Positions 1-38,648 of a stretch of 57,986 nucleotides of DNA are shown here, piece after piece. A program made the translations under genes and the position numbers. The stretch lies in NCBI GenBank assembly GCA_035444565.1, contig DAOMOX010000001.1, forward strand, positions 1 through 57,986. Direction: 5' to 3'. Source of the DNA: Candidatus Dojkabacteria bacterium (GTDB lineage Bacteria > Patescibacteriota > Dojkabacteria > B142 > OLB20). Below the pieces are notes generated by a model, which was given only the letters and a program-made list of their open reading frames with translations, did not search any database and had not been told where the DNA came from. Each line of letters opens with the position of its first letter. Positions within the stretch are counted from its first letter, which is position 1.

Positions 1-82
1 ATTGTTGTTTGAAAATTATATCGGAGCGTAGTTCAGTTTCCGCCAGAGGCGGACCAGCCTTTGGCTGGGGCTAGAACACTAC
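1..82 (+). pseudogene. Truncated tRNA-Pro-like copy: 5' flank plus acceptor/D-arm 5' part, with a 30-nt double-hairpin insertion in the D-loop; homology ends after the D-stem
   Basis: nt 1-38 are identical to nt 83-120 (flank attgttgtttgaaaattatat + cggagcgtagttcagtt). nt 39-68 (tccgccagaggcgga + ccagcctttggctgg, two 6-bp-stem hairpins) interrupt the D-loop. nt 69-77 ggctagaac resume the tRNA sequence, then similarity stops. The window edge may cut the unit. Confidence 0.7.
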
Positions 83-103
83 ATTGTTGTTTGAAAATTA
101 TAT

Positions 104-177
104 CGGAGCGTAGTTCAGTTGGCTAGAACGCTCGCTTTGGGAGCGAGAGGTCGCTAGTTCGAGTCTAGTCGCTCCGA
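104..177 (+). tRNA. tRNA-Pro (anticodon UGG), CCA not encoded
   Basis: Manual cloverleaf, 74 nt. Acceptor cggagcg/cgctccg; D-arm gttc-agttggcta-gaac; anticodon arm ctcgc-tttggga-gcgag (anticodon TGG); variable aggtc; T-arm gctag-ttcgagt-ctagt; discriminator a. Confidence 0.92.
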
Positions 178-200
178 TATAATTTTTACAATGATAGTCT

Positions 201-446
201 ATGAGTTACTCTGTTTATGTTTTGAAGAGTAAGAACAACGGAAACCGTTACATAGGTTATACTAGTAAACCAATCACGAACAGACTAAAAGAACACAATG
301 AAGGCTCAAATCAATACACCAAAAATAATATTCCATATGAGTTGCTTTATTTCGAACAGAACTATTGCAAAGAATGTGCTACAAATAGAGAGAAGTTCCT
401 AAAGTCTGGTCAAGGTAGTAAATTGCTCGATAAAATTCAAGCGTAG
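201..446 (+). CDS. Small GIY-YIG nuclease family protein (YhbQ/UPF0213-like)
   Basis: 81-aa ORF with a GIY-YIG-type pattern: YSVYVLKS..NRYIGYT..RLKEHN..ELLYFE..REKFLKSGQG. It starts 24 nt after tRNA-Pro. Its TAG stop (444-446) lies inside the downstream tRNA-like copy. Confidence 0.8.
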   Translation: MSYSVYVLKSKNNGNRYIGYTSKPITNRLKEHNEGSNQYTKNNIPYELLYFEQNYCKECATNREKFLKSGQGSKLLDKIQA

Positions 447-577
447 TTCAGTTTCCGCCAGAGGCGGACCAGCCTATTGAGCCATAGGCACATCAGCCTT
501 TGGTTGAGGCTGGGGCTAGGACGCTCGCTTTGGGAGCGAGAGGTCGTCCCGCCTATTTATAGGCGGAATCGCTCCGA
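441..577 (+). pseudogene. Degenerate tRNA-Pro copy lacking the first 4 nt, with an expanded D-loop insertion and the T-arm replaced by a different hairpin
   Basis: gcgtagttcagtt (441-453) matches tRNA positions 5-17. The same tccgccagaggcgga/ccagcc..gctgg insertion as in copy 1 is present, now carrying a nested 34-nt insert (475-508). ggctaggac plus the anticodon arm gctcgctttgggagcgag plus aggtcg are retained (514-546). The T-arm is replaced by tcccgcctatttataggcggaa (547-568). The acceptor 3' strand tcgctccga is retained (569-577). Confidence 0.75.
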
Positions 578-652
578 TTGAGTTTTTGAACGAAGTGAAA
601 AATTACTCGATCGTGATTCTGCCGAAGCTTTAGCGAAGGCATGGCTCCGATT
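571..652 (+). repeat. 64-nt two-hairpin cassette bracketed by direct repeats of the tRNA-Pro 3' acceptor strand (gctccgatt)
   Basis: gctccgatt occurs at 571-579 and 644-652. Between them lie hairpin gagttttt..aaaaattactc (loop gaacgaagtg) and hairpin tgcc-gaagctttagcgaa-ggca (620-641). Confidence 0.7.
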
Positions 653-703
653 TAGTTTCCTATATAATGTCTTAAACTAAATCCATTATATTTTATGTGA
701 AAT

Positions 704-1063
704 ATGGAGGACGATACACTTAATTATTTTGAGGATTTATACAATCAGCATCGGGATCAATTTCTCCAGGAATGGGGTATTGAATCAGCGGGACAATTAA
801 CAGTTGGTACACTAGAATTCCTTCCTGCTGGACAACCAGTCTTCTTTGAAGGAAGAACTCGGTGCTTTGATCCTGAAACACTCAGCGTGCATAGGATACA
901 TGGATTTGGTGACTACCATGGTCAAAGTACTTCGAAGAAGGAAAGATCAGGAGATGGATTTCCTTTCTCTATAATAACTTGTGATGGTGTCCGATATTTG
1001 TGTCATCGCAAGACTTTTGTCATCATTCCTTATGTTACTACAACGACATTACCAAAATGGTAG
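704..1063 (+). CDS. Hypothetical protein (119 aa), orphan
   Basis: Uninterrupted ORF with an ATG start. I recognise no family. By eye it is more G+C-rich than neighbouring genes. It lies between two clusters of tRNA-Pro 3'-end repeats. Confidence 0.5.
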   Translation: MEDDTLNYFEDLYNQHRDQFLQEWGIESAGQLTVGTLEFLPAGQPVFFEGRTRCFDPETLSVHRIHGFGDYHGQSTSKKERSGDGFPFSIITCDGVRYLCHRKTFVIIPYVTTTTLPKW

Positions 1064-31961: not shown

Positions 31962-32033
31962 CTGGCCAGCTAGGACTCGAACCTAGAACCTATCCGTTAA
32001 CAGCGGATTGCACTACCATTGTGCTACTGGCCA
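31962..32033 (-). tRNA. tRNA-Asn (anticodon GUU), CCA not encoded
   Basis: Reverse complement folds as tggccag-ta-gcac-aatggta-gtgc-a-atccg-ctgttaa-cggat-aggtt-ctagg-ttcgagt-cctag-ctggcca-g. 72 nt. Confidence 0.92.
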
Positions 32034-38289: not shown

Positions 38290-38337
38290 CATCAAAAAGT
38301 CTGGCTTTAACGAAGTGAAAGCCTAGACTTTTTAGAT

Positions 38338-38409
38338 GGGTTGGTAGCTCAATGGTAGAGCAATGGCCTTTTAAGCCAGTGGTTGCGGGTTCGAGTCCCG
38401 CCCGACTCA
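38338..38409 (+). tRNA. tRNA-Lys (anticodon UUU), CCA not encoded
   Basis: gggttgg-ta-gctc-aatggta-gagc-a-atggc-cttttaa-gccag-tggtt-gcggg-ttcgagt-cccgc-ccgactc-a. 72 nt. Two G-U pairs in the acceptor stem. Confidence 0.9.
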
Positions 38410-38648
38410 TATTTTGCCTTTGAGCAAAGCGAAAAGTTGCAAAATAAAGTCTGCCGAAATTTTAATGTAGGCATGACTCATATGATTTATCTCTGATATT
38501 GTTACAGAGGCGGGACGAGAAGTTTATCCCGTAAATCGAAAGAAGTGAGATTGTACGGGAAGTCGCGCCCGACTCATATTTTGCCTTTGAGTGAAGCGGA
38601 AAGTTGCAAAATAAAGTCTGCCGAAATGTAATGAAGGCATGACTCATA
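38400..38648 (+). repeat. Duplicated 82-83-nt block starting inside the tRNA-Lys 3' end; four copies of gactcata bracket hairpin cassettes and a tRNA-like remnant
   Basis: Block 38400-38482 versus block 38567-38648. They share gcccgactcatattttgcctttgag, ttgcaaaataaagtctgccgaaat and ggcatgactcata. gactcata occurs at 38404, 38475, 38571 and 38641. The segment 38491-38566 carries an anticodon-arm-like hairpin ctctg-atattgtta-cagag, then gcggg, then hairpin cccgta-20 nt-tacggg, then gcgcccgactca. Confidence 0.75.

Follow-up and report, generated by a model that had tools for sequence, protein, structure and literature searches.

The first 577 nt of contig DAOMOX010000001.1 from a Candidatus Dojkabacteria bacterium, whose analysed stretch of 57,986 nt we call the window, hold a tRNA-Pro(UGG) gene that shares its locus with two broken copies of itself and with the gene of an 81-aa GIY-YIG nuclease. 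Sequence comparisons identify the locus as a rearranged member of an extensive and apparently undescribed family of very small nuclease genes seated on tRNA genes. We propose, with moderate confidence, that the tRNA-Pro gene was colonised by a selfish mini-nuclease cassette belonging to a large tRNA-dwelling GIY-YIG clade that is accompanied by a 30-nt double hairpin, that the cassette entered through tRNA homology, and that it is now decaying.

Layout of the tRNA-Pro locus

The locus is built of repeats (Table 1): positions 1-38 and 83-120 are 100% identical, as are 25-60 and 440-475, and 121-153 matches 514-546 at 97%. The 38-nt tandem block had already been noticed in a first-pass annotation of the sequence and was confirmed, as was the complete tRNA-Pro(UGG) gene, which both ARAGORN and Rfam recognise. 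The GIY-YIG open reading frame (ORF) that the annotation placed after this gene is present too, at a distance of 23 nt instead of 24, and its stop codon, the TAG at 444-446, is indeed formed by nt 8-10 of a third tRNA-Pro copy. The first copy does reach tRNA nt 26, where it had been said to stop, but it encloses the double hairpin and is followed by ACTAC. The third copy, described as lacking the first 4 nt only, also carries a nested double hairpin in its D-loop and a 22-nt hairpin in place of its T-arm, and it was not called a tRNA by ARAGORN or by Rfam (E<=5). The D-loop insertion that had been seen in both broken copies is this double hairpin, an independent element and not the mark of an older gene.

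Table 1. Features of the tRNA-Pro locus and of related loci
Feature	Position	Strand	Remarks
A' unit	1-82	+	leader 1-21, tRNA-Pro nt 1-17 (22-38), double hairpin 39-68, nt 18-26 (69-77), ACTAC
Double hairpin in A' unit	39-68	.	exact 30-nt element between tRNA nt 17 and 18
Native 5' leader of functional tRNA-Pro	83-103	+	also present in ORF-less L217
Intact tRNA-Pro(UGG), functional copy	104-177	+	ARAGORN 103-178; Rfam RF00005, 66 bits, full length
Trailer and 5' untranslated region of ORF	178-200	+	23 nt separate tRNA and ORF
81-aa single-domain GIY-YIG nuclease gene, UPF0213/YhbQ-Slx1 branch	201-446	+	PF01541
Remnant tRNA-Pro pseudogene (third copy)	441-577	+	ancestral position; parts below
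Third copy, tRNA nt 5-17	441-453	+	base-by-base reading
Third copy, outer double hairpin	454-477 plus 508-513	+	D-loop; interrupted by inner hairpin
Third copy, inner double hairpin	478-507	+	nested in second loop of outer one
Third copy, tRNA nt 18-50	514-546	+	97% to 121-153
Third copy, unrelated 22-nt hairpin in place of T-arm	547-568	+	base-by-base reading
Third copy, acceptor 3' strand	569-577	+	base-by-base reading
In-frame double hairpins, L087-L206 set	L122:4258; L141:5845, 6865; L125:5515; L147:4196; L188:685; L171:5253		pattern scan
Group I introns by locus	L017:1848-2079; L021:1752-1986; L025:1686-2009; L033:748-1102; L072:1770-2097; L083:1807-2047; L218:2114-2364		RF00028

The leader of the functional tRNA-Pro pairs with its trailer through nt 94-103, and the stretches 94-110 and 170-186 are 100% complementary, giving an acceptor helix of 17 bp (z = -7.2). 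In a relative whose ORF is 83% identical (L007), leader and trailer likewise build an acceptor helix of ~18 bp (about 151-168 with 230-247), from wholly different sequences (AAAATTATAT/ATATAATTTT in the window, GTAGACAAAAT/ATTTTGTCTAC in L007), and in the ORF-less relative L217, described below, 9/11 positions pair. This suggests that the pairing forms a conserved precursor helix. No promoter-like site was found between the tRNA and the ATG (178-200). Because this interval leaves no space for a promoter of its own, the ORF is presumably co-transcribed with tRNA-Pro, and it is likely to be read from the tRNA promoter by read-through.

A clade of nuclease genes that end in tRNA genes

Homologues of the ORF formed 83 clusters in a first search and 4,485 clusters (50% identity, E<=1e-10) in a wider one; nearly all of the best 150 of these 4,485 are 70-160 aa long. 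In a census of 80 species-representative loci, about 85% of the ORFs run up to or into the 5' end of a tRNA gene on their own strand. A same-strand tRNA starts -30 to +25 nt from the ORF stop in 52 of the 80 loci, and in ~16 further ones the tRNA was missed by ARAGORN through a double hairpin, a group I intron or a contig end. The TAG of tRNA nt 8-10 (U8-A9-G10; 9-11 by ARAGORN start) serves as the stop codon in 22 loci, and the TAG at nt 21-23 does so in a few others. The association of GIY-YIG genes with tRNA genes that the first-pass annotation anticipated beyond this locus is thus family-wide, and the ORFs of the family typically end within a tRNA. Their partners belong to at least 13 isoacceptor types (14 anticodons), Asn(GTT) being the commonest. 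A nearest-neighbour ORF shares the tRNA partner in 18/31 cases, and partners switch among related ORFs.

The double hairpin is nearly as regular a companion. In its strict form it lies 7-66 nt before the ATG (median about 19 nt) in 53/80 loci, and a degenerate or nested version was found upstream in about 14 more. Once it is removed, the upstream fragment and the 5' part of the downstream tRNA are at least 90% identical in 39 of the 41 testable loci, and the upstream copy begins at tRNA nt 1-2 in 27. Within the fragment, the hairpin stands after nt 17 (10 loci), 28-29 (12), 8 (4) or 12-14 (7), more rarely at nt 18 (1 locus), 54 (2) or 70 (1), with 4 loci not placeable; the tRNA fragment ends 2-16 nt past it.

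Two layouts recur. In the common type I layout, a tRNA 5' fragment with the double hairpin is followed by the ORF and an intact tRNA. Most family members have no replacement tRNA upstream and sit 5' of an intact tRNA, which speaks against the earlier suggestion that such genes carry a replacement tRNA of their own. The type II layout of the window is recurrent: a fragment with the double hairpin, an intact tRNA, the ORF and a hairpin-bearing remnant. It is found elsewhere in L007, L212 (tRNA-Ala(GGC)), L065 (tRNA-Val) and L219, and the last three show that the expected order of intact tRNA, ORF and broken tRNA exists with other tRNAs. One locus, L084, has duplicated the tRNA 3' part instead of the 5' part. 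Common to these arrangements is an ORF between two copies of a tRNA segment: one is part of the working tRNA and free of insertions, and the other, spare one contains the double hairpin.

Tandem arrays of hairpin-bearing fragments are genuine. L059 holds an array of two such fragments. In L045 (1409-2104), two 100% identical tandem copies of double hairpin plus ORF, with a period of 364 nt, precede one tRNA-Asn. On a long-read polished 1.3-Mb contig of the candidate phyla radiation (CPR), L076 (1849-2560), seven identical 103-nt units follow an intact tRNA-Asn; each unit consists of GCAGTT, the double hairpin, the tRNA-Asn 3' part and a trailer, and the last has an extra T-loop hairpin pair.

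In seven loci, mostly with tRNA-Asn, the tRNA right after the ORF contains a group I intron (Rfam RF00028, 64-90 bits), and tRNA introns are unusually concentrated beside this free-standing nuclease gene. Many short-read contigs end shortly past the nuclease gene, inside the tRNA; in L010, L014, L016, L026, L044 and L061 the end lies 14-79 nt past the ORF match. Such breaks are to be expected if duplicated tRNA pieces confuse assemblers.

A sister subfamily served as an internal control. Under the same test, 15 of its 80 loci have a tRNA at the stop and 10/80 have one just upstream, together 25/80 (31%), and a double hairpin lies upstream in 5/80 (6%). As the hairpin is so much rarer there, its link to the nuclease gene is clade-specific. 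Viral contigs yielded two weak relatives only and no evidence for a phage vector.

The 81-aa protein

The protein matches the Pfam GIY-YIG domain (PF01541) over residues 3-72 and scores 47.7 bits (E=2e-12), where the curated cut-off is 22.6. The residues Y6, Y17, G19, R28, H32 and E64, invariant in 30 sequences, are all present. Its closest solved structures are the UPF0213 proteins 1zg2 (BH0048; 1.6e-10) and 1ywl (EF2693; 2.8e-10), followed by SLX1 (1.6e-4); SegB and I-TevI were not among the five PDB sequences matched (E<=0.1). No named protein family was matched in NCBIfam or PHROGs. The catalytic domain fills the 81 aa, and no separate DNA-binding domain was found.

A dN/dS of 0.05 against L007, at saturated dS, indicates strong long-term purifying selection on the ORF. 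The comparison with L208, from a sister lineage with a 94% identical ORF, has a different character: five changes are non-synonymous and one is synonymous. Among them are R73S in the window and R63K in L208, each in an alignment column where at least 90% of relatives agree; codon 73 (window 417-419) encodes Ser in the window protein and Arg (GQG-R-K) in at least 90% of relatives. These changes, six in all, hint that selection on the nuclease was recently relaxed, and they suggest that the gene may now be decaying in the window's lineage.

A 30-nt double hairpin with a life of its own

The GC-rich element at 39-68 consists of two 6-bp hairpins, TCCGCC-AGA-GGCGGA and CCAGCC-TTT-GGCTGG. Its DNA fold of -12.2 kcal/mol (z = -4.7) was equalled in 0/200 shuffles. 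A pattern scan of species representatives found it at at least 120 loci, from which 129 copies were sampled. Among the matches listed, the hosts include CPR phyla, Omnitrophota, Kiritimatiellae, Ignavibacteria, Planctomycetes and others. The stem positions left free by the pattern covary, being fully paired in 94 of the 114 unique copies listed, whereas shuffles average 35 and reach 49 at most. In most copies the last base of loop 1 is A and the first base of loop 2 is T, which gives the reverse complement of the element the identical form. An inverted double hairpin, considered for L059, was ruled out because both strands have the same form.

Within the clade, the nuclease gene is almost always accompanied by the double hairpin, whereas the hairpin is seldom accompanied by the nuclease gene: among the copies listed, a GIY-YIG gene adjoins about 7/129, and a tRNA lies within 400 nt of 17/129. 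Long ORFs contain 71 of the 129 listed copies, and 49/78 listed copies favour the frame that reads SA-x-GGSA-x-GG, a Gly/Ser/Ala decapeptide. All seven host genes tested are conserved ones (UvrA, UvrB, Mfd, CTP synthase (PyrG), PheT, PurL and alpha-amylase). Double hairpins nested in double hairpins occur in the window (478-507), in L058 and in L060. As far as its sequence tells, the double hairpin is an exact 30-nt (10-codon) element that spreads independently, tolerates coding regions and nests in itself. With many copies, a conserved structure and positions within coding genes, it has the properties of an in-frame palindromic repeat.

Other identities for the element were considered and rejected. 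It is not an RNA-level intron of functional tRNAs, as every hairpin-bearing copy examined is a fragment beside a clean tRNA. A palindromic repair footprint is contradicted by a sequence that is conserved and independent of its flanks, and a terminator by a 5' flank rich in T and a 3' flank rich in A. An IS200/IS605-type transposon was dismissed too: no TnpA or TnpB gene adjoins the hairpin in the window, and the 30-nt unit stands by itself. At a permissive threshold, Rfam holds no family for the double hairpin and none for the third tRNA copy.

Variation among strains and an ORF-less relative

Close relatives of the locus were drawn from contigs encoding the protein and from one metagenome scan. 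The ORF protein and the layout recur in several assemblies (L001-L006, L216), one of which, L216, is 100% identical to window positions 1-969. In L003 and L216, gap-free sequence leads from an older, degenerate unit (A0) through one 82-bp A' unit, the intact tRNA and the ORF to the third copy, and the whole is bordered by unique sequence at either end. The triplicated structure, for which an assembly artefact had been a concern, is thus reproduced in independent assemblies. Contig L002, whose end is the window, begins 17 nt earlier, within the preceding 82-bp unit; the window start is an assembler break in a tandem array. L001 and L004 have scaffold N-gaps within this array.

The number of A' units varies: there are none in L208/L210, one in L003/L216 and at least 2-3 in L001/L004. 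L208 and L210 belong to the sister lineage L208-L211, which has the same synteny, an intact tRNA, the ORF and a third copy riddled with double hairpins, and from which the 82-bp unit is absent. Because strains carry from zero to at least three copies, the first broken copy is a tandem repeat of variable number and not the left half of a split gene. The ACTAC at the end of the A' unit corresponds to nt 27-31 of the third copy in L208 (GAACACTCGC), a match that suggests exchange between tRNA copies. In L005 and L006, the third copy carries an un-nested double hairpin plus a further one in the T-loop. Remnants are more decayed in some relatives: L007 has the type II layout with a remnant that looks like the product of a deletion between D-loop and T-loop double hairpins. 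An exact tRNA-Pro 48-mer was found among GTDB representatives in the L007 contig only.

Upstream of the window, at L001:9510-9628, the A0 unit comprises tRNA-Pro nt 1-9, hairpins of other sequence and CAGTTCA. One of these hairpins is TCCCTGA-TCAAG-TCAGGGA, and L001 has a second one too. A shorter form of A0 occurs in L217 (209-260).

L217, a metagenome contig from a related species and not from a strain, provides an ORF-less allele of the kind that the first-pass annotation had suggested looking for in relatives. It has the leader and tRNA-Pro of the window (97.9% over the stretch matching 91-186), followed by a dCTP-deaminase-like (DCD) gene with 79% nt identity to the window's, and within 5.9 kb it has neither a GIY-YIG gene nor a double hairpin. 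The 3' flank of its tRNA shares homology with that of the third copy in L005 (72% over 266 nt). As this flank belongs to the single tRNA of L217, the third copy occupies the ancestral position; and as ORF-less L217 has the leader too, the 21-nt flank is a native leader and not cassette cargo. The comparison supports an insertion between the leader and the body of the resident tRNA. Of the idea that a cassette landed in an older tRNA-Pro gene, the insertion itself, the ORF-less allele and the ancestral third copy were supported, while the flank as cargo and the split first copy were not.

Proposed mechanism

The scheme that we propose begins with recombination through tRNA homology, either by a single crossover of a small tRNA-plus-ORF circle or by break repair copied from a donor, and stimulated by nuclease cuts at or near the double hairpin or the tRNA. 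Such an event would leave the native leader on the clean upstream tRNA and move the 3' part of the resident gene to a place behind the ORF. The copy so displaced would lose its 5' acceptor strand, become a pseudogene and gather double hairpins in the D-loop, nested and in the T-arm, and unequal crossing-over between the 38-nt repeats would expand and contract the A' array. A whole-tRNA recombining segment would produce type II, and a 5'-fragment segment type I. Recombination between the flanking repeats could lead to excision, ORF-less alleles and changes in array size. The breaks may be supplied by the Slx1-like-branch nuclease, possibly at the extruded double hairpin, and cutting there would explain why the hairpin lies a few nt from the junction. 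The ORF would be expressed from the tRNA transcript; where the layout is of type I, the borrowed stop codon would be lost when RNase P cleaves the transcript, and this loss, speculatively, may act as a built-in brake on expression.

Several points weigh against this scheme. No cleavage site, circle junction or transfer event was observed, and the mechanism is deduced from static sequences. The 81-aa protein is without a DNA-binding domain that could find a target. Loci bearing the element retain an intact tRNA, which would still be cleavable if the tRNA were the target. A move to a new tRNA by homology alone should leave a mismatched acceptor stem, yet the downstream tRNAs are intact. Simple recombination does not explain the spacing of 2-16 nt between the double hairpin and the fragment end. 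All close ORF-bearing strains sampled share one site, which gives no sign of homing between cells. L217, moreover, could be a revertant produced by deletion between two tRNA copies.

A bolder proposal, which we entertain as a tentative possibility, is that the double hairpin and the mini Slx1-like GIY-YIG gene together constitute a new mobile system. The hairpin would be the structure-specific target and passenger, harmless in frame in housekeeping proteins as a Gly/Ser/Ala decapeptide on either strand. The nuclease would be parked on a tRNA by partial duplication, would use the tRNA promoter and the U8-A9-G10 stop, and RNase P would compete with its expression.

Alternative explanations

It is also conceivable, if unlikely, that the double hairpin is the primary mobile agent and the GIY-YIG protein a nuclease acting in trans, with tRNA fragments as harmless landing pads and the link between ORF and tRNA secondary. 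Exact 30-nt insertion at many unrelated sites, self-nesting, the listed copies in long ORFs (71/129), their frame bias (49/78) and the seven conserved host genes are in line with this idea. So is the asymmetry between the two partners, since a near-universal hairpin beside the ORF and a rare ORF beside the hairpin (about 7/129 listed) is what an autonomous partner accompanied by numerous non-autonomous copies would show. However, GIY-YIG enzymes hydrolyse DNA without rejoining it, which leaves insertion without a mechanism; no target-site duplication or transposase-like signature was seen; and the abutment of the ORF on tRNA +1 would go unexplained. We consider it distinctly unlikely that the gene encodes an immobile, domesticated enzyme that serves tRNA or RNA metabolism, or repair, and is placed beside a tRNA for co-expression, and that the fragments stem from hairpin-induced local recombination. 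The strong long-term purifying selection, the very large and widespread family (4,485 clusters, E<=1e-10), the known fusion of Slx1-like and TrmH-like domains (Dunin-Horkawicz et al. 2006) and the gene's tight fit against the tRNA would suit such an enzyme. It would not be expected to vary its partner over at least 13 isoacceptor types (14 anticodons), to be missing at the same locus in the close relative L217, to occur in tandem or multiple copies at some loci, to have assemblies often break right behind it or, as appears to be the case in the window's lineage, to have lately lost conserved residues. A clean tRNA, furthermore, always stands beside the hairpin-bearing copies, and removal of the hairpin at the RNA level is therefore not needed.

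Slimmer still are the prospects of the original proposal, by which a cassette of flank, clean tRNA-Pro and ORF split an older, hairpin-bearing tRNA-Pro gene into the first and third copies and restored its function. These two copies do share 36 identical nt including the double hairpin, L212 shows the same layout with an identical double hairpin and immediate flanks on both sides, and an ORF-less allele exists. The flank, however, is the native leader found in L217; L208 and L210 carry the cassette and the third copy with zero first copies, which are a variable tandem unit elsewhere; the tRNA of L217 is clean and shows no sign of a hairpin-bearing ancestral gene; and the double hairpin spreads alone and nests in itself. 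A mis-join of repeats has next to no chance of accounting for the triplicated tRNA. The window does start in a repeat, and two scaffolds of metagenome-assembled genomes (MAGs) have N-gaps in the array, but L003 and L216 span the structure gap-free between unique sequences, related species share the layout with diverged sequence, and the long-read polished genome of L076 contains a 7-unit array of like kind. An integrase-type tRNA island was rejected, as no recombinase adjoins the locus and the duplicated part is tRNA nt 5-76 or the 5' part and not the 3' end only. The colonisation of the tRNA-Pro gene by a nuclease cassette remains the reading that we favour. Double hairpins and nuclease loci of this kind disrupt metagenome assemblies and mislead tRNA and gene calling in CPR genomes. 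The system could account for tRNA fragments, for arrays in which such fragments stand in tandem and for short Gly/Ser/Ala insertions in proteins, and the host genes point to a very small hairpin element that has settled in essential genes of many uncultivated phyla. At 81 aa and 30 nt, the system is small enough for direct in vitro work.

Genomic context

The window is cellular DNA with a GC content of ~35% and encodes V/A-type ATPase subunits, GatA/GatB, SHMT and RecJ. Its nearest genome representatives are MAGs labelled as CPR, and one contig matching it came from activated sludge. The 58-kb window contains no paralogue of the ORF, a strict double-hairpin scan of it returned the copy at 39-68 only, and blastn of positions 1-700 found no copy of the locus sequence beyond 1385. 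From these scans, the other tRNAs of the window, Asn-GTT (31962-32033, - strand) and Lys-TTT (38337-38410, + strand), appear free of double hairpin and nuclease gene. By ARAGORN and Rfam, Intron_gpI is absent from the window, tRNA-Pro has no intron and the ORF stands alone. No recombinase or integrase gene is among the ORFs adjoining the locus.

Direct repeats of the tRNA-Pro 3' end lie downstream, at 571, 644, 1310 and 1369. A 781-nt segment (588-1368) that is missing from the sister lineage L208 is flanked by direct repeats, GCTCCGATT(G/T)AGTTTTT, at 571-587 and 1369-1385, which correspond to the 3' end and trailer of tRNA-Pro. Inside it are inner repeats (635-653 = 1301-1319), two more 3'-end-like copies and a 119-aa ORF (704-1063) with no match in Pfam or NCBIfam.

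Comparison with known systems

The best solved-structure matches place the window protein beside UPF0213/YhbQ and Slx1, with which it shares a single GIY-YIG domain. Slx1 cuts branched and stem-loop DNA, and this activity fits a hairpin-associated nuclease. Neither tRNA-gene adjacency nor a hairpin element is described for UPF0213 or Slx1 in the literature checked, including Dunin-Horkawicz 2006. A prokaryotic Slx1-like domain fused to a TrmH-like tRNA methyltransferase is on record (Dunin-Horkawicz et al. 2006).

The tRNA 3'-end direct repeats downstream are reminiscent of integrase islands at tRNA 3' ends. There is, however, no integrase near the locus, and the tRNA body or 5' part is duplicated and not the 3' end alone.

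Fungal mitochondria harbour double-hairpin elements and GC clusters, short GC-rich elements of two hairpins scattered in AT-rich genomes, and their mobile GIY-YIG ORFs, such as that at Allomyces atp6, are inserted with a duplicated piece of the host gene and leave a pseudogene remnant. In contrast to the double hairpin described here, these elements are organellar, have another sequence, target protein genes and are not fixed at 30 nt. Rickettsia palindromic elements are selfish palindromes that lie in frame in housekeeping genes and also in RNA genes; they measure ~100-150 nt and are confined to Rickettsia. The double hairpin differs in being exactly 30 nt long, in occurring in many phyla, in having the same form on both strands and in its tie to a nuclease gene. 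In cyanophages, the free-standing endonuclease F-CphI reportedly homes in collaboration with a group I intron in psbA. The group I introns in the tRNA after the ORF in seven family loci are similar in kind, whereas the tRNA-Pro of the window and most family loci are intron-free.

The gene lies outside any intron or intein and is polymorphic for presence and absence between related species (L217), as are homing-endonuclease genes of the Seg/Mob type, and we class the locus as a free-standing GIY-YIG selfish nuclease at tRNA genes. Our literature search, whose coverage excluded many subscription papers, found no GIY-YIG/tRNA/hairpin arrangement in bacteria and nothing on the clade, on partial tRNA duplication or on a bacterial double hairpin of this kind; phage SegB was the sole GIY-YIG/tRNA precedent found. 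SegB is a free-standing GIY-YIG nuclease in the tRNA gene cluster of phages T4/T6 that cuts tRNA-containing DNA and drives tandem amplification of tRNA and segB through homologous recombination between the tRNA 5' region and the segB 3' end (PMC2330249; PMC13096335). It resembles the present system as a free-standing GIY-YIG gene among tRNA genes, and its amplification parallels the ORF/tRNA overlap and tandem arrays described here. By published descriptions, SegB belongs to the I-TevI-like branch and is larger, whereas the window protein has 81 aa and the catalytic domain only. The clade described here, moreover, is cellular and not viral, and partial duplication of the tRNA and a hairpin element of its own go with it. 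SegB is the nearest analogue, and the clade, if our reading holds, would be its widespread cellular counterpart, a nuclease gene reduced to the minimum that occupies tRNA genes and leaves them functional.

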